Part shown: positions 54,015-62,032 of the stretch, in pieces
Layout: the number at the start of each line of letters is the position of its first letter
How positions within the stretch are numbered: position 1 is the first letter of the stretch
Assembly (NCBI GenBank): GCA_030065975.1
Contig: JASJCN010000001.1
Location: 4,294 to 68,293, forward strand
Length of the DNA stretch: 64,000 nucleotides
Direction: 5' to 3'
From: Myxococcota bacterium
GTDB lineage: Bacteria; Myxococcota_A; UBA9160; UBA6930
Notes under the pieces: model-generated
What the model saw: the letters and a program-made list of their open reading frames with translations, nothing else
What the model was told of the DNA's origin: nothing
The model's database searches: none
Translations under genes and position numbers: made by a program

Positions 54015-54089
54015 CTCTTCGCGAGGAGTCCTGGTTGACAGCGTCGACCCGGCTGTGGTCTCATGCCCCCGGGAAGGACGGAGGACGCG

Positions 54090-55547
54090 ATGTCCCGGAC
54101 CCCTTCCCGTTGCGCCCTGCTCGTCGCCCTGATCCTCCTGACGGCCGGCGCGAGCCACGCGGGCACCTTCGACCTGATCGCCACACTGGAGGTCGGCGCG
54201 ATCGGGACCCACAAGAGCTACCTCGTCACGGGCTCCGGGTCGCGAGTCACGAGCGTCGGAGGAGGCGTCGCCCAGATACCGGCCGGCCTCTTCCCCGCCA
54301 CTCTCGCCGGCTTGATCTCGCCGCCCGACTTCGGCCTCGACAACGTCCAGGTCGTCGGTGGAGGGCTTCCCGCCGGAACCCTGGACGCAGGGGCGCCGAC
54401 GAACGTGCTTCCGCTGCTGGGCATTCAGCAGCTGCGGCAAGGGACCCGCACCGACCTCACGGTCGCGCAGTCTCCCATCGGCGGTGGCGGAACCGCGATG
54501 GGAAGCCTGCTGGATGCGTTTGCGGTGACCCTGAGCGGCTCGCCCTGGCTCCTCGGCGTTCACACGGTGACGGGCACCGGTCTGGGCGCCCGCACGCAGG
54601 TGCTGAGCGGCTTCGATGCACGGACGGAGGCGGGAAGGGGCGTTGTGCGGTTCGTCTCTCCCGGGTCGACCCGCATCCCCGGGTTTCCGGTCCAGATCCC
54701 GACCGGAGGCATCCTCACGCTCGAGTACGTGACCGCCGCCGACGAGCCCGGTGCGCTGTGGCTCGGAGCCTTGCTGCTGCTCTTGCTCCTCGGCTTCGTA
54801 CGATCCTCGCGCCTGTCTCCTGCTCTTCGCAGTGTTCTGCTCGGAGTCGCCGTGTCGATCGTGCCTGCGACGACGAGCCACGCGGGCACATTCGACCTGG
54901 TCGCGACCCTGGATGTCGGACCGATCGGGGGAGTCGGCGGCTACCAGGTCACCGGGTCCGCGTCGGGGGTGACGAGCATCGGCGGCGGTGTCGCCCAGAT
55001 TCCCGCCGGCCTGTTTCCGGCGACGATCGCGGGGATCCTGTCGCCGGTGGACTCCGGCTTCGACAACTTCCGTGTCGTCGGAGGAGGCCTGCCCGCCGGA
55101 ACGCTGAACGCGGCCCTCTCGACGAACGCACTTCCCCTGCAAGGGACGCATCAGGTCCTGGCCGGCGCGATCCAGGGCGGCTTCATGGCGCAGACCCCCA
55201 TCGGCGGTGGGGGGACGGCCATGGGGATCTTCGGTGGTCTCCTGCCGGTCACGCTGAGTGGGTCCCCTTGGCTACTGGGCATCCACACCGTGGTGGGCGC
55301 CGGGCTGGCAAGCGGGGTCGAGCAGGTCCTCAGCGGTTTCGATGCGCGGACGGCATCCGGAGCGGGCGTCGTGCAATTCGTGTCTCCCGCGACGGCTCGC
55401 GTCGCGGCGCTTCCCGTGCTCCTCCCTACCGGCTCGACACTGACCCTCGAGTATCTGGCCGCCGCCACCGAACCGATGCCCGTCGTCCTGCTGAGCGTGG
55501 TGCTGTTCCTCACGGCGGCGCGAGTGCGGAGTGCTCGACCCCTGTAG
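54090..55547 (+). CDS. secreted protein made of two tandem copies of an unrecognised ~215-aa domain, each followed by a PEP-CTERM-like xEP-TM-basic signal
   Basis: GGAGGA RBS. Signal peptide ending SHA-GTFDL. Copy 1 ends DEPGALWLGALLLLLLLGFVRSSR (54741-54812). A second signal-peptide-like stretch and second copy follow in frame, ending TEPMPVVLLSVVLFLTAARVRSARPL. Confidence 0.7.
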   Translation: MSRTPSRCALLVALILLTAGASHAGTFDLIATLEVGAIGTHKSYLVTGSGSRVTSVGGGVAQIPAGLFPATLAGLISPPDFGLDNVQVVGGGLPAGTLDAGAPTNVLPLLGIQQLRQGTRTDLTVAQSPIGGGGTAMGSLLDAFAVTLSGSPWLLGVHTVTGTGLGARTQVLSGFDARTEAGRGVVRFVSPGSTRIPGFPVQIPTGGILTLEYVTAADEPGALWLGALLLLLLLGFVRSSRLSPALRSVLLGVAVSIVPATTSHAGTFDLVATLDVGPIGGVGGYQVTGSASGVTSIGGGVAQIPAGLFPATIAGILSPVDSGFDNFRVVGGGLPAGTLNAALSTNALPLQGTHQVLAGAIQGGFMAQTPIGGGGTAMGIFGGLLPVTLSGSPWLLGIHTVVGAGLASGVEQVLSGFDARTASGAGVVQFVSPATARVAALPVLLPTGSTLTLEYLAAATEPMPVVLLSVVLFLTAARVRSARPL

Positions 55548-56634
55548 GCGCGGGGCCATCGCCCTCGTCTTCGCGCTGATGGCCCACTGCGCTTGCGGCC
55601 GAGCACCCGAGCCGCTGCTCTCGGGCGTGCTCGTCCGCGCGAGCGAGCCTGCACCGGGCCTTCCCGTCCTGTCGGACCTCACGGTGTTCCGCGACCGGCT
55701 CTACGTGGCGGCCTCCCGCAACCCCCTCGTCGAGCGTGGCGCAGCCGTTCTGGCGAGCCGGGACGGGCGGGAGTTCACGCGTCTGCTGGATCAGCCCTTG
55801 GCCGACGGGTTCGCCCGCATCCGCGTGATCGATGACGTGCTCTTCGTGCCCGGGCTCGACCCGCCCGGGACGGCCCCGGGTCGGGTGTGGATCAGCGAGG
55901 ACGGCGGGACCTTCCGCTCCACGCTCGTGCCCGGTGCGGTTCACGCCTACGACGTCGCCGCGCACGAAGGCGCGGTGGTCCTCTCGGGGGCGCTCGAAGG
56001 AGGCCGGCTCGGGGCGTTGTTCGTCCGCGAGGGGCTCGCGTGGCGGGAGATCCTGCGGCAGCCCTACTCGCGGCTCAAGTTCCTGCTGCCCGTGGGAAAC
56101 GCGCTGCTCGTCGCGAAGACCGACGTGGGGACAGCCGTCGACTACCTCGTGTTGCGCGGCCCCGTCGACGCGATCGAGGCCGAGCCCCGGGACGTGGTCG
56201 CCGGCGAGGCGATCACGTTCCGTTGGTTCACCTCCTCGCGCGGCGTGCTCTTCTGGTCCCTCCGGGACGAGACGGGTCTCCGTTGCCTGACGAGCGACGA
56301 CGCCGAGAGTTGGTCGCCCGTGCCCGGACTCGATGGCCGGTTCGTGTCCGACTTCGCGGAGCTTCGGGGGAATCTCTATGCCCTCGCGCAGGACGGCGTT
56401 CACGGCTCGACGGACCACCGGACGTTCCGGCCGGTGGCCGCGGACCCCGAGGGTGCCCCCTTCGACCCGGTGCCCGCCGAGGGTGTCTACAACGCCGACG
56501 CGACGGCCAGCATGGTGGCGTTTCGCGGCGAGCTGCTGGCCGGAAGCAGCCGCAACGGCATGCTCTACGCACTGATTCCCGAGGGGAGCCGGGAGGAACC
56601 GGTTGCTAGGCGGGAGAGCGCTGTGGTTGAATGA
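55531..56634 (+). CDS. secreted/lipoprotein-like repeat protein (possible beta-propeller), unknown function
   Basis: GTG start. N-terminal AIALVFALMAHCACG. Recurrent ~45-aa segments with G/D...L.A...G motifs. No catalytic motif recognised. Confidence 0.6.
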   Translation: MLDPCRRGAIALVFALMAHCACGRAPEPLLSGVLVRASEPAPGLPVLSDLTVFRDRLYVAASRNPLVERGAAVLASRDGREFTRLLDQPLADGFARIRVIDDVLFVPGLDPPGTAPGRVWISEDGGTFRSTLVPGAVHAYDVAAHEGAVVLSGALEGGRLGALFVREGLAWREILRQPYSRLKFLLPVGNALLVAKTDVGTAVDYLVLRGPVDAIEAEPRDVVAGEAITFRWFTSSRGVLFWSLRDETGLRCLTSDDAESWSPVPGLDGRFVSDFAELRGNLYALAQDGVHGSTDHRTFRPVAADPEGAPFDPVPAEGVYNADATASMVAFRGELLAGSSRNGMLYALIPEGSREEPVARRESAVVE

Positions 56635-56653
56635 CCCGGGGGAGGGACACGTC

Positions 56654-57352
56654 ATGAAGCGGCTGTTCATTGCTGCACTCTTTCTGTTCTCCGGACCTCC
56701 TGCCTGGGCAGGCACGTTCAACCTCAAGGCGACCCTCGAGGTGCCGCTCTTCCTGGAGAGCCCCCTGCAGCTCTCCGGGTCGGCGACGGGAGTGACGAGC
56801 ATCGGAGGCGGGGTGGCCCAGGTCCCGGGCGGCTTGTTCCAGTCCCAGATCTCGACCCCGATCTCCCCGCCCCAGTCCGGGCTGAACAAGCTCACGATCA
56901 CGAACTTCGGCCTTCCGGCCGGGACGCTCGACGCGGCGCAGCCGCTGAACCAGCTCGGCCTCCAGGGCACGGTGAACATCTTCGCCGGAGCGAACTTGGG
57001 GGGCTCGTGGACGCTGGGTCCGATCGGATCGGGAGGCACCTCGACCAGCCTCATCCTGGGGATCTTCCCGCTGGTGCTCAGTGCCGAGGCCTGGCAGATC
57101 GGGACCTTCGTGATCTCGGGCCCGCTCGGAACGCAGACCCTCGTCGGCATCGATGCGCGAACGCCGGCGGGCGAGGGCCTGGTCCAGTTCGTCGCCCCCG
57201 GGACCTTCAGTGACGCCCTGGGGATCATCGGCGGCGGGGCGGCGTTCCCGGCCGGGTCCACGCTCACGCTGCGCTACGTCGCCGTCGGCGAGCCGGTCGT
57301 CTGGGCGCTCCTGACCGGAGCCCTCTGCGTAATCGGTCGTCGTCGCCGCTAG
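56654..57352 (+). CDS. PEP-CTERM-like sorting-signal protein, paralog A (232 aa)
   Basis: GGGGGAGGG RBS. MKRLFIAALFLFSGPPAWA-GTFNL ... TLTLRYVAVGEPVVWALLTGALCVIGRRRR. Confidence 0.75.
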   Translation: MKRLFIAALFLFSGPPAWAGTFNLKATLEVPLFLESPLQLSGSATGVTSIGGGVAQVPGGLFQSQISTPISPPQSGLNKLTITNFGLPAGTLDAAQPLNQLGLQGTVNIFAGANLGGSWTLGPIGSGGTSTSLILGIFPLVLSAEAWQIGTFVISGPLGTQTLVGIDARTPAGEGLVQFVAPGTFSDALGIIGGGAAFPAGSTLTLRYVAVGEPVVWALLTGALCVIGRRRR

Positions 57353-57364
57353 CGGCGCGCCGGA

Positions 57365-57439
57365 TCAGATCTCGATGCCGGGGTTCGCCGGGTCGTCGTA
57401 GCGCTGATGCAGGAAGGGGAGGAGCCACTCGCCGGGCAT
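57365..57439 (-). pseudogene. duplicated 3' fragment (25 codons) of the acetoacetate decarboxylase-family gene
   Basis: Near-identical (2 mismatches by eye) to 58403-58476. Encodes PGEWLLPFLHQRYDDPANPGIEI(stop) with no upstream body. Confidence 0.7.
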
Positions 57440-57674
57440 TCACGGCTCGACGGACCACCGGACGTTCCGGCCGGTGGCCGCGGACCCCGAGGGTGCCCCC
57501 TTCGACCCGGTGCCCGCCGAGGGTGTCTACAATGCCGACGCGACGGCCAGCATGGTGGCGTTACGCGGCGAGCTGCTGGCCGGAAGCAGCCGCAACGGCG
57601 TGCTCTACGCACTGATGCCCGAGGGGAGCCGGGAGGAACCGGTTGCTAGGCGGGAGAGCGCTGTGGTTGAATGA
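57439..57674 (+). pseudogene. duplicated 3' fragment (78 codons) of the 55531..56634 gene
   Basis: 56401-56640 vs 57441-57680 shows 4 mismatches in 240 nt by hand alignment. Lacks the 5' ~870 nt of the parent gene. Track ORF 57474..57674 lies within it. Confidence 0.7.
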
Positions 57675-57691
57675 CCCGGGGCGGAGGCACC

Positions 57692-58390
57692 ATGAAGCGA
57701 ATCCTCGTTGCCGCACTCTTCCTGCTCGCCGGGCCTCCTGCCTGGGCCGGCACCTTCAACCTGAACGCCACCCTGGTGGTTCCCATGTTCGTTCTGGAGG
57801 AGGTGCAGTTCTCCGGCTCGGCCGTGGGCGTGACGAGTGTCGGGGGAGGGATCGCGCAGGTCCCGGGCGGCTTGTTCCCGTCGCAGATCTCGACTCCGAT
57901 CTCCCCGCCCCAGTCCGGCCTCAACAAGCTGACGGTGATGAACTTCGGACTGCAAGGCGGAACTCTCGACGCCGGACAGGCCACGAGCCCGCTCGGCCTC
58001 CAGGGAACGGTGAACCTTCTCGCTGGCGCCAATCCGGCCGGTGGCTTCGGTCTGGGTCCGATCGGCGCGGGCGGAACCACGGCCGGGTTGATCTTCGGGA
58101 TCTTCCCCATCACGCTGAGCGCCGAACCCTGGCAGCTCGGCACCTTCATGATCCCGTCGCCCTTCGGGCCCTCGCAGACGCTCGTCGGGTTCGACGCACG
58201 CACGCCCAACGGCGCAGGCCTGATCCAGTTCGTGTCGCCCGGAACCTTCTCGGACTTCTTCGGTGTCGGCTCCGGAACTCCGTTCCCGGCCGGCTCGACG
58301 CTCACGCTCCAGTACGTGGCCGTCGCCGAGCCGGTCGTCTGGGCCCTCCTGACTGGAGCCCTCTGCGTGATCGGTCGTCGTCGCCGCTAG
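57692..58390 (+). CDS. PEP-CTERM-like sorting-signal protein, paralog B (232 aa)
   Basis: GGCGGAGG RBS. MKRILVAALFLLAGPPAWA-GTFNL ... TLTLQYVAVAEPVVWALLTGALCVIGRRRR. Confidence 0.75.
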   Translation: MKRILVAALFLLAGPPAWAGTFNLNATLVVPMFVLEEVQFSGSAVGVTSVGGGIAQVPGGLFPSQISTPISPPQSGLNKLTVMNFGLQGGTLDAGQATSPLGLQGTVNLLAGANPAGGFGLGPIGAGGTTAGLIFGIFPITLSAEPWQLGTFMIPSPFGPSQTLVGFDARTPNGAGLIQFVSPGTFSDFFGVGSGTPFPAGSTLTLQYVAVAEPVVWALLTGALCVIGRRRR

Positions 58391-58402
58391 CGGCGCGCCG
58401 GA

Positions 58403-59200
58403 TCAGATCTCGATGCCGGGGTTCGCCGGGTCGTCGTAGCGCTGGTGCAGGAAGGGGAGGAGCCACTCGCCGGGCACCGGGCGCAGCACGCGGCCGTTGG
58501 ACTCGGTGGTGCCCTCCTCGGCCTCCATGCGGACGATGCGCAGGACCGGGAGGTCGGCCACGGGGTCGAAGGGCGACTCGCGCAGCAGGATCTCGCCGTC
58601 CTCGATGCGGTTCACCTTGCGGTGCCGATGGCGCCACTCGAGGCGCACCAGCAGCGGGTCGCCGTCGAAGTCGCGCTCCTTCTCGCAGGAGGGCAGGGCC
58701 TTGAAGCAGAAGCCGAGCTCGGTCATCTCGCGCTCGGGAAGCGCCTCTCCGATGCGGCCCCCGGCCTCCATGTAGGCGACGCCCAGCCGGGTCACGCTGC
58801 CGCGCGCCTTCTCGTCGTCCATGTCGAATGCGATGTCGGCGATCTTCTTGGGCTCGCCGAAGGTCTCACGGCCCGGCACCACCGCCTGCTCGGTCGTCAT
58901 CGGCATCGTGACCAGGTAGATGCCCTCCTCGCCGTCGTAGCGGGCCTTCACGCCGAAGACGCCGGACCCGATCTCGATCGTGAGCTCGGGCGTCACGTGC
59001 ATCGATACGTGGGAGAGGGTCATGCACACGAGCGGCTCGTCGGCGGGCTCGAGGGGGCGGGGGATCACGGCGCGGGCGAGGGCCGGATCCGTCTCGTACT
59101 CGCAGCGGATCGAGCGCACGGTGCTGTCCAGGAACTCGGGGTTCGACTCCCGGGCGGCCTTCACCTGCTCGAGGGTCTTCACGTAGCGGAGACGGGCCAT
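58403..59200 (-). CDS. acetoacetate decarboxylase (ADC) family protein
   Basis: Internal ATG of ORF 58403..60220, overlapping the upstream stop by 1 nt (TGATG). 265 aa with beta-cone-like ADC family features (GVFGVKARYDGEEGIYLVTMPMT, CFKALPS). Confidence 0.75.
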   Translation of the reverse strand: MARLRYVKTLEQVKAARESNPEFLDSTVRSIRCEYETDPALARAVIPRPLEPADEPLVCMTLSHVSMHVTPELTIEIGSGVFGVKARYDGEEGIYLVTMPMTTEQAVVPGRETFGEPKKIADIAFDMDDEKARGSVTRLGVAYMEAGGRIGEALPEREMTELGFCFKALPSCEKERDFDGDPLLVRLEWRHRHRKVNRIEDGEILLRESPFDPVADLPVLRIVRMEAEEGTTESNGRVLRPVPGEWLLPFLHQRYDDPANPGIEI

Positions 59201-60396
59201 CAGGACTCCTTGGTCGTGGAAGCGAAAGCCGCGGGGTTCGGGCCGATGCGCGCGGCAAGGGGTGCCAGCTTCTCGGTGTCGAAGCCGTACAGGGCGGCGG
59301 CGTTGCCGCCGAGCATCGCCCGCAGGTCGGCCTCGGGGATGCCGTCGAAGCTCTCGTGCAGCTGCTTGCTCGTCTCGGGCCAGCTGCCTTCGGGATGGGG
59401 GTAGTCGGTGCCCCACATGATGTTCCCGATGCCGATGCGCTCCCGGTCGACGACCTCGGTGCGCGGCATGCACGAGGCCCCGAGGAAGACGTGCTCGTGG
59501 AAGTACTCGCTCGGCTTCTTCGAGAGGTGGCTCTGGTAGTCGCCGAGCTTGGCCTGGTAGTGGGCCTCGCTGTAGCGGAAGTCGTGGAGCGTGAGCGCCT
59601 CGGGCACCCACACGCAGGTCGACTCGGTGATGGCGAGACGCAGCTTGGGATGCCGCTCGAAGACGCCGCCCCAGATCAGGAACCAGATCGGCCGGGCCGA
59701 CCACCAGACGACCTCGGAGATGTAGAGGCCCATCATCCCCTGGTGGTCGTCGTAGTCGCTCATCGGCGCGGCGCCGGAGTGGAGGTGCATCACCATCCCG
59801 GTGTCCTCGCACGCCGACCAGACGGGCTCGTACTTGGGGTGGTGGTAGGGATCCTGGCTGCCCCACATCGAGGGGATGAGGATGCCGCGCAGCCCGTTCT
59901 CCCGGGCCCACTCGATCTCCTTCACGGCCTCCTCGACGCTCCAGAGAATCGGCACGATCGCGAGCCCCGCACGCCGCTCGGGCGCCATCTGACAGAACTC
60001 CGCGATCCAGCGGTTGTGGGCGCGCGCGCCGGCCCACTGGAGCTTCGGGTCGATGCCCTCGGTGGGCAGCGAGAGGCCGGCGCCGAAGGGCGGGAGGTTC
60101 ATCTCGGTGATGCCGTCGGGGAAGATCACCTCGCCGGCCACGCCGTCGGCATCGAGCACCTGGTTGCGCATGTCCGAGTCCCAGGCGCCGGTCAGCTGCT
60201 GCTCGTGTCCCTTGCGCCACTCGACGTTGAAGTCCTCGACCAGGAACTTCTTCGAGGCCTTCTTCACCTCCTCGATCTGGATCGGGAGGGCCACGTCGAA
60301 GATCTCGCGGTACTCGGGATCGACGTAGTCGCGGTAGCGCTCGGGCGGAAGCCCGGCGTGACAGTCGCTCGAGATGATCAGGATCGGATCGCTCAT
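59200..60396 (-). CDS. amidohydrolase-2 family (ACMSD-like metal-dependent hydrolase/decarboxylase)
   Basis: GGAGGAG RBS and ATGA overlap with the Rieske gene. ISSDCHAG, MHLHSG, WGTDYPHPEG. Confidence 0.85.
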   Translation of the reverse strand: MSDPILIISSDCHAGLPPERYRDYVDPEYREIFDVALPIQIEEVKKASKKFLVEDFNVEWRKGHEQQLTGAWDSDMRNQVLDADGVAGEVIFPDGITEMNLPPFGAGLSLPTEGIDPKLQWAGARAHNRWIAEFCQMAPERRAGLAIVPILWSVEEAVKEIEWARENGLRGILIPSMWGSQDPYHHPKYEPVWSACEDTGMVMHLHSGAAPMSDYDDHQGMMGLYISEVVWWSARPIWFLIWGGVFERHPKLRLAITESTCVWVPEALTLHDFRYSEAHYQAKLGDYQSHLSKKPSEYFHEHVFLGASCMPRTEVVDRERIGIGNIMWGTDYPHPEGSWPETSKQLHESFDGIPEADLRAMLGGNAAALYGFDTEKLAPLAARIGPNPAAFASTTKES

Positions 60397-61397
60397 GCGT
60401 TCTCCTCCGAGGGCGTCGGGTCGTCGCCCTCGTCGACTTCGTCGAGGGGGTGATGGCTGTAGAACTGGCGCGTCCATTTCCGGAACGCGGCGAGATGCTC
60501 GTCGGCCTCGCAGAAGACGGGCCGGGCGCGATGGATCTTGTTCTTCCAGATGCGCAGGTCCTGCTTCACGCCCTCGGTCATGCCCTTGATGAAGGGCTCG
60601 CCGGCGACGTCGGCGAGGTTGCGGCTCACCGTGAAGGCCCAGCGCGAATGGGTGGTGTGGGTGTCGATGGGCGTGGTCGACGAGAAGAAGAGCAGGCCGG
60701 CTTCGCCCATGCCCTTCATGCGCACCGAGGTGACGCCCAGGCTCCAGCTGTCGCGCTCGAGGTCGACGCGATGGGTTCCGAAGGGCGTCTCCGCCTCCTG
60801 CCAGCTCGTCATGCGGAAGAAGCGGCCGTTCTCGTGGATCTGCATCTCCGAATCGGGGATGTGCGGATTGCCGTGCACCGTCGCGAAGTGCGCCGGGTCG
60901 CAGTTGTTCTCGGCCATCTCCTGCATGTGCACGGGCATCTCGATGTCGAAGAAGCGCGGCTCGGTGTAGCTCGGGTCGTCGAACTCGGGGAGGCTCGGCA
61001 CCTCCCAGTCCGGCGGCTTCCCCTCCGCGTGGCGCCACACGAAGATCATGTGGTTGCGCTCCACGCACTCCCAGGGGCGGGTGCGCGCCCGGGCCGGGAT
61101 GCGCTTGCAGTAGGGGATCTCGACGCAGGTCCCGCTCTCGTCGAAGCGCCAGCCGTGGAAGGGGCAGCGGATGCCGTCACCCACCACCATGCCGCCTTCA
61201 GCCAGGTGCGCGCCCATGTGCGGGCAGAAGGCGTCGAGCACGATCGGCTTCCCGCTGCGCCCGCGGAAGAGCACGAGCTCCTCCTCGAAGGCGTCGACGC
61301 GCTGCACCTGCCCCTCGGCGAGGTCCTTGCTCCACGCCACGGCGAACCACCCGTTCGGAATGGGAAGCTCGGTGTGCTCCCGCTCTCGCTTGCTCAT
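60393..61397 (-). CDS. Rieske [2Fe-2S] non-heme iron oxygenase, KshA-like
   Basis: CPHMGAHL...CPFHGWRF Rieske motif. NNCDPAHFATVHG mononuclear iron region. Confidence 0.9.
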   Translation of the reverse strand: MSKREREHTELPIPNGWFAVAWSKDLAEGQVQRVDAFEEELVLFRGRSGKPIVLDAFCPHMGAHLAEGGMVVGDGIRCPFHGWRFDESGTCVEIPYCKRIPARARTRPWECVERNHMIFVWRHAEGKPPDWEVPSLPEFDDPSYTEPRFFDIEMPVHMQEMAENNCDPAHFATVHGNPHIPDSEMQIHENGRFFRMTSWQEAETPFGTHRVDLERDSWSLGVTSVRMKGMGEAGLLFFSSTTPIDTHTTHSRWAFTVSRNLADVAGEPFIKGMTEGVKQDLRIWKNKIHRARPVFCEADEHLAAFRKWTRQFYSHHPLDEVDEGDDPTPSEENA

Positions 61398-62032
61398 CGG
61401 GGCTCCTCCGTCCGACCGGACGTTCCGTCCTCCGGCGGCTTGGAGATGCTGTCGCCGAGCAGGCGGGCCAGGGCCTCGGCGCGCTCGGCGATGGGGTGCT
61501 GCTCCAGGTGGGCATGATCGAAGGCCAGGGTGTAGAACGCCCCCAGCACGAGCTCGGTCAGCGTCTCGTCGTCGTGGTCGGGCGTGAGCTCGCCGGCGTC
61601 GCGCCCCTCGCGGATCAGCGCACCGAAGGCCGCGTGCATGCGTCGGGTCTCCTCGGCCCCCTGCCGCTGTCCGAGCTGGATGAACTCGTTGATCAGCTCG
61701 CGGTGCATGCGCCCCGCCGCCTGGACCTCGGCGGCGAGGGACTGGAAGAGGATGGCCAGGCGCTCGCGCGTCGTGCCGGGGCGCTTGCGGACGTCCTCGA
61801 CGCGTTCGAGCAGCTGGGACAGCCCGGCGTCCGCGATCTCCCGCAGCAGGTGGGCCTTGGAGGGGAAGTGGTTGAAGAACGTCTTCTCCGCCACGTCGGC
61901 CCGCTCGCAGATCTCCCCGACCCGCGTGTCCTCGACGCCGCGCGCCTCGAACAGCGCGATGGCCGCCTCGAGGATCCGCTCGCGGCGGGCCGCCTTCTTG
62001 CGCTCACGTCGATTGGGGACGGACTCGCTCAC
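61394..62032 (-). CDS. TetR/AcrR family transcriptional regulator
   Basis: ILEAAIALFEARGVEDTRVGEICERADVAEKTFFNHFPSK. ATGA overlap with the Rieske gene. Confidence 0.9.
   Translation of the reverse strand: MSESVPNRRERKKAARRERILEAAIALFEARGVEDTRVGEICERADVAEKTFFNHFPSKAHLLREIADAGLSQLLERVEDVRKRPGTTRERLAILFQSLAAEVQAAGRMHRELINEFIQLGQRQGAEETRRMHAAFGALIREGRDAGELTPDHDDETLTELVLGAFYTLAFDHAHLEQHPIAERAEALARLLGDSISKPPEDGTSGRTEEPR

Follow-up and report, generated by a model that had tools for sequence, protein, structure and literature searches.

Natural transformation can yield tandem merodiploids that carry two different alleles (Johnston et al. 2013, PMC3784515). In such merodiploids, as in homology-facilitated illegitimate recombination (for an example, see PMC3240628), incoming DNA recombines at a homologous anchor, a donor allele is added in tandem to the one already present in the recipient, and one end may be an illegitimate join. 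Here we describe a locus that resembles these products, located in a stretch of 64,000 nucleotides (nt) from a Myxococcota bacterium (GenBank assembly GCA_030065975.1, contig JASJCN010000001.1, positions 4,294 to 68,293 of the forward strand); this whole stretch is referred to below as the window. The locus consists of two head-to-tail units of about 1 kb, each with one of two related genes, C and D, and lies between a beta-propeller gene (P) and a convergent acetoacetate-decarboxylase-family gene (ADC). Our results demonstrate that it is a mosaic, that it contains a novel junction, and that the cores and the flanks of its units differ in age. We favor, at about an even chance, a history in which the junction is young and one of the two cores came from a diverged haplotype through recombination in conserved borders. 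Pneumococcal merodiploids span 100 to 900 kb and are bordered by preexisting insertion sequence (IS) repeats, whereas the unit described here is 1 kb long and its junction has neither homology nor clear microhomology. Furthermore, both the donor and the competence of this organism are putative.

In partial concerted evolution, gene conversion keeps duplicates alike over some of their length, whereas a region under selection remains divergent; the population-genetic theory is established, and many examples are known. The present locus is similar in that near-identical segments adjoin a strongly diverged segment in two tandem copies. It differs in that the homogenized parts are mostly nonfunctional gene fragments rather than functional gene ends, that other gene pairs of the same family do not display homogenization, and that conversion here is putative. 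Cassette loci of the pilE/pilS type also have variable cores between conserved borders that are usable as recombination handles. Here, in contrast, there are only two copies, both of them complete genes, with no silent cassettes and no evidence of switching.

Another relevant case is the lpl cluster of tandem lipoprotein paralogues in Staphylococcus aureus (Tsuru and Kobayashi 2008, PMC2568036). Both loci encode tandem paralogues of exported proteins that are mosaics of conserved and variable segments; conserved segments are sites of recombination, and the evolutionary unit differs from the open reading frame (ORF). In lpl, however, it is the middle segment that is conserved and the ends that vary, and the shuffling is documented in many genomes, whereas here the borders are conserved and one population is represented. 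The proteins themselves resemble PEP-CTERM/exosortase substrates (Haft et al. 2006, PMC1569441) in their overall layout: a signal peptide precedes a low-complexity beta domain rich in Gly, Thr, and Ser, and the C-terminal region carries a motif, a membrane helix, and a basic cluster in succession. They differ from these substrates in that C and D have GEP or AEP rather than PEP and that their mature domain has no Pfam or NCBIfam match. Mosaic paralogues generated by recombination are already well known; the gene family itself is undescribed.

Two tandem units with near-identical flanks and diverged cores

Exact alignment reproduced the two head-to-tail units, the junction at 57438/57439, and the gene composition that an earlier note, made from the sequence alone, had described. 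Each unit begins with the final 236 nt of P, continues with gene C or D, and closes with 74 nt from the 3' end of the convergent ADC gene (58403-58476). The overall tandem order is P-C-a/p-D-ADC, where a and p stand for the 3' fragments of the ADC and propeller genes, respectively, and the slash marks the junction. Fragments a and p each lack the remainder of the parent gene and are thus truncated bordering genes at the junction. The features are as follows (aa, amino acids; TM, transmembrane helix).

55531 to 56634, plus strand: beta-propeller gene P; its last 236 nt are the upstream flank of unit 1; stop codon at 56632-56634
56399 to 57438: unit 1, 1040 nt, head to tail with unit 2
56399 to 56641, plus strand: upstream flank, copy 1; functional 3' end of P (236 nt) plus 7 nt
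56642 to 57288, plus strand: divergent core, copy 1; ribosome-binding-site region and codons 1-211 of C
56654 to 57352, plus strand: gene C; 232 aa, with signal peptide, Gly-rich beta domain, and GEP-TM-RRRR tail
57289 to 57438, plus strand: downstream flank, copy 1; C tail (64 nt), 12-nt spacer, and ADC 3' fragment
57365 to 57438, minus strand: truncated ADC 3' fragment (a); 74 nt, nonfunctional, 1 mismatch relative to 58403-58476
57438 to 57439: novel junction, GGGCA/TTCACGG; unique within the window
57439 to 57674, plus strand: truncated propeller 3' fragment (p); 236 nt, last blade and tail, nonfunctional
57439 to 58476: unit 2, 1038 nt
57682 to 58326, plus strand: divergent core, copy 2, placed by alignment
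57692 to 58390, plus strand: gene D; 232 aa, paralogue of C
58327 to 58476, plus strand: downstream flank, copy 2; D tail, spacer, and functional ADC 3' end
58403 to 59200, minus strand: ADC gene, convergent with D; PF06314 match (E = 4e-35)

Global alignment of the two units gave 182 differing columns that are very unevenly spread. The upstream flanks (56399-56641 and 57439-57681) differ at 4 of 243 positions (56493, 56523, 56560, and 56577), in agreement with the 4 mismatches counted previously by hand. The downstream flanks (57289-57438 and 58327-58476) differ at 4 of 150 positions (57307, 57316, 57331, and 57407), within one mismatch of the "about 5" given before. Neither flank contains indels, and pooled they differ at 8 of 393 nt, a divergence of 2.0%. 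In the core, 174 of 650 columns differ (26.8% divergence, 73% identity), and the alignment of proteins C and D, which covers 231 residues and includes two 1-residue indels that compensate each other, has 73.6% identity; these values bear out the earlier estimate of about 73%. Divergence is not uniform across the unit (core versus flank, Fisher p = 3.6e-30).

Breakpoints were placed with a two-breakpoint likelihood scan of the unit alignment. The maximum-likelihood positions are 56642 on the left (2-lnL support, 56636-56642) and 57289 on the right (57275-57295). On the left the change is abrupt, as 64 identical nt are followed directly by core-level divergence with an indel; on the right identity is graded, from 84-86% through 93% to 99%. 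Identical runs within the core reach 23 nt at most, compared with a permutation 95th percentile of 25 nt, so that there are no recent conversion patches. The membrane tails of C and D are identical over 20 aa. All three mismatches in the coding tail are synonymous. The nonfunctional fragments, 329 nt in total, contain no indels, with mismatches at 1 of 86 and 4 of 243 positions. Fragment p carries 4 substitutions relative to its parent P, 3 of them nonsynonymous; in a comparison aimed at their polarity, propeller homologues were variable at the sites of all four.

These profiles bear on the main rival history, in which C and D derive from an old tandem duplication and the a/p junction dates from that original event. 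The flanks would have evolved in concert through recurrent RecA-dependent conversion, in which the functional ends of the propeller and ADC genes served as donors and the two sorting-signal tails converted each other, while the cores escaped conversion once they had diverged and were kept distinct by selection. We regard this history as possible but doubtful. The graded right-hand boundary agrees with it; the abrupt left boundary does not. It would also require unbroken homogenization of short nonfunctional segments (86 and 243 nt) until synonymous sites in the cores were nearly saturated, with 329 nt of junk DNA passing through this whole period without an indel or deletion. In addition, the 650-nt core is longer than the flanks and should have converted more readily at the outset.

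Core and flanks differ in age

Nei-Gojobori analysis of the core gave a proportion of synonymous differences (pS) of 0.45 (78 of 174 synonymous sites), a synonymous divergence (dS) of 0.69, and a nonsynonymous divergence (dN) of 0.21, with a dN/dS ratio of 0.30 overall and of 0.27-0.31 in every third of the core. Both cores are therefore under purifying selection. Both genes are also complete 232-aa ORFs: each starts with ATG downstream of a purine-rich stretch and encodes a signal peptide as well as a tail. Judging from their sequences, C and D are both intact and probably cotranscribed, and they encode predicted exported PEP-CTERM-type proteins.

In this genome and gene family, synonymous saturation lies at a pS of about 0.5-0.6; the old pairs A-B (described below) and X18a-b both have a pS of 0.53. 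Core dS is thus near saturation while the flanks differ by about 2%, a difference of about 40 times, which indicates that core and flanks have different coalescence times and that recombination has taken place. The proposal that simple duplication and drift cannot explain the pattern holds accordingly. The contrast between flanks at 2.0% and a core at 26.8% is what would be expected if segments had remained more alike than the age of the duplication would allow; it fits a young junction as well. In either case, the locus offers a clean natural example of a bacterial tandem duplication in which the junction and its cargo demonstrably differ in age.

The earlier note offered three explanations, one of them strong diversifying selection on the exposed domain; we considered this as the sole cause of the divergence following one recent duplication. 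The prediction that the protein is exported or surface associated is in line with it, as is the coincidence of the divergent block with the gene body. However, low dN/dS ratios combined with high synonymous divergence are not the result of diversifying selection, and selection on amino acids cannot raise synonymous divergence 40-fold over that of the flanks. This explanation is thereby refuted, and its chance is practically nil. Among the other two, replacement of the core by a different allele is favored, and gene conversion of the flanks keeps a lesser place.

The junction is present in a second assembly

At the junction, ADC position 74 is joined to propeller position -236. The parental sequences share 0 bases there, and a GGC match is found one base away. 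This is the signature of an illegitimate (nonhomologous) join, and one such join created the order P-C-a/p-D-ADC.

Another explanation for the locus is an assembly artifact, in which alleles of two co-occurring strains were threaded into one contig. The sequence is indeed metagenome derived, and short-read assemblies break inside the repeat. We nevertheless find an artifact very improbable, since the joined sequences share no bases and the junction has no k-mer in common with either parent, so that no graph overlap could produce it and an assembler cannot invent it. The junction also occurs in two assemblies that differ at single-nucleotide polymorphisms. Contig L001 of GCA_013332805.1 (1151 nt) corresponds to window positions 56399-57549 with 1 mismatch, spans the junction, and encodes the exact C protein; the junction thus has support from outside the assembly studied here, a point relevant to the assembly chimerism that the earlier note had asked to exclude. 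Contig L003 of the same assembly begins exactly 110 nt before the first copy-2-specific base and continues through D into unique ADC sequence. There is no branching at the repeat ends, as L001 passes the junction and L003 passes 58476. The ends of L001 overlap by 111 nt, which implies that it is a 1040-nt cycle in a k = 111 assembly graph. Such a cycle could be held in favor of an artifact, but it is expected for a tandem repeat whose first 111 nt at least are identical. The population may carry the C unit as a single copy or as an array.

The exact D protein is encoded on L003 and also on a scaffold in ENA (L002/L004; ERZ23486730 scaffold_7138) that contains P-D-ADC only, with 100 N placed exactly inside the repeated flank. 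Its contig ends lie at window positions 56453 and 57627, and over 8244 positions outside the repeat there are 8 differences from the window, of which five lie at a contig end. We considered whether this scaffold represents a single-copy strain and rejected this interpretation, as the 100-N gap in the repeated flank marks a collapsed repeat that is uninformative on copy number. In practical terms, this locus is collapsed in short-read metagenome assemblies, in the ENA case to one copy over a gap. At the position of the propeller, the ENA gene calls have a 302-aa ORF on the opposite strand, which accounts for the absence of the propeller protein of this organism from the protein collection. L001 to L004 are at least 99.9% identical, and all assemblies carrying the locus sample essentially one population.

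At positions 57533-57563-57600-57617 of fragment p, the window has T-A-G-G, GCA_013332805.1 has C-T-G-G, and the parent P has C-T-A-T. L001 and L003 thus carry the parental state (C, T) at 57533 and 57563. Elsewhere in the approximately 10 kb compared, the assemblies have 3 differences away from the contig end. In the window, going from the junction toward D, the p-specific positions 57533 and 57563 come first and the D-linked positions 57600 and 57617 follow, a continuous chain that is again contrary to an artifact. With regard to the old-duplication history, the alternative state at 57533 and 57563 is that of the parental P and is compatible with a recent conversion tract; the three haplotypes are, on the other hand, consistent with a tree of mutations only. 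The polymorphism itself could be either a gene conversion tract or two fresh mutations in a pseudogene fragment.

C and D belong to a family that recurs in tandem pairs

C and D each have a signal-peptide-like N terminus, a Gly/Ser/Thr-rich body, and a tail composed of (G/A)EP, a hydrophobic helix, and RRRR. Upstream of P, the window contains two older paralogues.

54063 to 55547, plus strand: A-B, two older C/D paralogues fused in one 494-aa ORF upstream of P

Searches of Pfam and NCBIfam returned no match for C, D, A-B, or the propeller, and PF07589 did not match C, D, or A-B even at E <= 1. A family profile search of 1.84 billion representatives identified 110 relatives. The full-length homologues P0010, P0014, P0015, and P0016 pass the PF07589 gathering threshold, and the tails of C and D align with the PEP-TM-basic tails of the homologues, sharing (G/A/P)EP, a hydrophobic stretch, and Arg-rich residues. 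By homology only, C and D can be assigned to an unannotated PEP-CTERM-type family; the "PEP-CTERM-like" label proposed previously thus stands through relatives that pass PF07589 and not through a direct match to it. An AlphaFold model of C, built from a 5-sequence alignment, had a predicted local distance difference test (pLDDT) score of 52, too poor for a fold search; this low-confidence model would have one helix at each terminus and an all-beta body in the middle. No exosortase (EpsH/Xrt) was found among the approximately 45 ORFs scanned in the 64-kb window.

A and B are 42-47% identical to C and D (tblastn) and 59% identical to each other. Each is complete, with a signal peptide, a domain, and an EP-TM-basic tail, and no stop codon separates them; B may be translated on its own or as part of a genuine fusion. 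A fused pair resembling A-B is also found in another organism (P0014, 528 aa). Tandem pairs are present in most of the loci seen, namely, A-B, C-D, L018 (8001-8693 and 8743-9444), L007 (9600-10418 and 10519-11331), and P0014. In a neighbor-joining tree, all five are sister pairs of broadly similar depth. Four of the five are on contigs with a beta-propeller homologue, which is adjacent in the window and in L018 and lies at a distance of about 8 kb in L007. These arrangements suggest either that duplication recurs or that the genes form a functional couple homogenized at intervals. The locus thus draws attention to an unannotated family that recurs as tandem pairs, several of them near beta-propeller genes.

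In the other three pairs for which DNA is available (A-B, L018, and L007), tails, spacers, and flanks are 35-50% identical and cores are 60-85% identical, and their membrane tails diverge freely. Decayed flanks beside better-kept cores are the normal pattern, the reverse of that in C-D. Long-term homogenization of flanks is therefore not a habit of this family, and the lack of flank or tail homogenization in these old pairs disagrees with an old duplication of C and D. The tree, by comparison, makes an old C-D pair natural.

No third C/D-like copy was found in the window, in the same metagenome, or in 5.8e9 proteins, which makes an internal donor unlikely. Conversion of C or D by A or B was considered and rejected, given 42-47% identity and the absence of any other copy. 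The family profile found no relative in 185,579 species genomes, and a scan of metagenomes yielded no contigs other than those of the same NCBI metagenome.

Origin of the mosaic

In the history that we favor, the join would be recent, at about 1-2% sequence divergence. The two units would not have been identical at the start, one core having come from a different haplotype of the same locus on DNA that was probably from a related strain, a donor whose existence we infer. Entry would have been by homologous recombination anchored in the borders, with the propeller 3' end on the left and the sorting-signal tail plus ADC on the right. This may have happened in one step, by homology-facilitated illegitimate recombination or as a transformation-type merodiploid with an ADC anchor and an illegitimate join, or in two steps, with duplication followed by allelic replacement of one core. 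One recent event is expected to leave nonfunctional DNA without indels and with similarly low divergence in both fragments, as seen here. The sharp breakpoints, the old cores, the identical 20-aa tails, the absence of conversion patches in the core, the lack of a third C/D-like copy, and, most telling, the reverse pattern in the three other pairs speak for this history, which has about an even chance.

Several observations weigh against it. No strain with a single-copy P-C-ADC or P-D-ADC arrangement was seen, L001 to L004 all being from one population. All five family pairs, including C-D, are sisters of similar depth, which fits an old retained pair. The junction does not have the 3- to 10-nt microhomology typical of homology-facilitated illegitimate recombination, and the haplotype difference in fragment p between the assemblies could mean that gene conversion between the flanks is active. 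An old duplication would not need a foreign donor, and none was observed.

A history without foreign DNA is also offered by remodeling, in which an old P-C-spacer-D-ADC arrangement was recently duplicated as a whole pair and then lost the first D core and the second C through two short-homology deletions. C-D would remain an old pair like the others, and short identical runs at the boundaries (CCCGGGG at 56635-56641 and 11- to 13-nt runs in 57243-57270) could have mediated the deletions. However, three separate events with no obvious selective reason would be required, and the intermediates were not seen. We consider this course improbable.

If a recent join with an introduced core is the correct explanation, a bacterium keeps two old surface-protein alleles side by side after recombination with a relative, and new paralogue pairs could arise in this way without passing through a slow phase of divergence. 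If, instead, the duplication is old, gene conversion maintains nonfunctional gene fragments for a very long time. A broader and rather unlikely proposition is that the conserved borders act as recombination handles through which strains exchange, stack, lose, and amplify deeply diverged versions of a surface PEP-CTERM protein. The locus would then be a cassette-like polymorphic surface locus, possibly involved in cell-cell recognition, with C-D as a captured "heterozygote"; polymorphic TraA provides a loose comparison. The direct repeats of 243 and 150 nt, 1 kb apart, predict instability of the locus, in that RecA-dependent recombination would delete C or D or amplify the unit.

Propeller, ADC, and neighboring genes

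The AlphaFold (AF2) model of P had a pLDDT of 86.9 and a predicted template modeling (pTM) score of 0.85, and its top Foldseek matches were the LGI1 EPTP, BamB, and Ycf48 propellers (E = 1e-8). The model and its matches confirm the earlier "propeller-like" label, just as PF06314 confirms that of ADC. The A-B ORF and the start of P overlap by 17 nt, and the end of P lies 19 nt from C. The close spacing of P, C, and D on one strand makes cotranscription likely; a promoter and terminator scan gave nothing above shuffled expectation. No integrase or transposase was present among the scanned ORFs, and a mobile element was rejected on these grounds as an explanation for the duplication.

The source organism is an uncultured Myxococcota with a 70% G+C genome. 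The TetR-KshA-amidohydrolase-ADC block (window positions 58403-62032, including a KshA-like Rieske oxygenase) is conserved across many Myxococcota metagenome-assembled genomes (MAGs), and the neighboring amidohydrolase is up to 81% identical to homologues in these MAGs. A genome scan with the amidohydrolase identified 42 loci (L019-L060), mostly annotated as Myxococcota or Deltaproteobacteria, that keep the TetR-KshA-amidohydrolase-ADC order. The A-B/C-D family and the propeller block are absent from all 42, which therefore provide no orthologous locus for comparison. Synteny with the MAG loci extends no farther than the ADC 3' end, which is precisely the limit of the duplicated unit. In these comparisons, the GST/A-B/propeller/C-D block is lineage specific.

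A more distant relative is represented by L005 (SRR24495969) and L014 (SRR24495970), whose propeller is 57% identical to P. Both contigs end before the region downstream of the propeller. Their order, GST, a single family gene, and the propeller, is that of the window, with one gene where the window has A-B.

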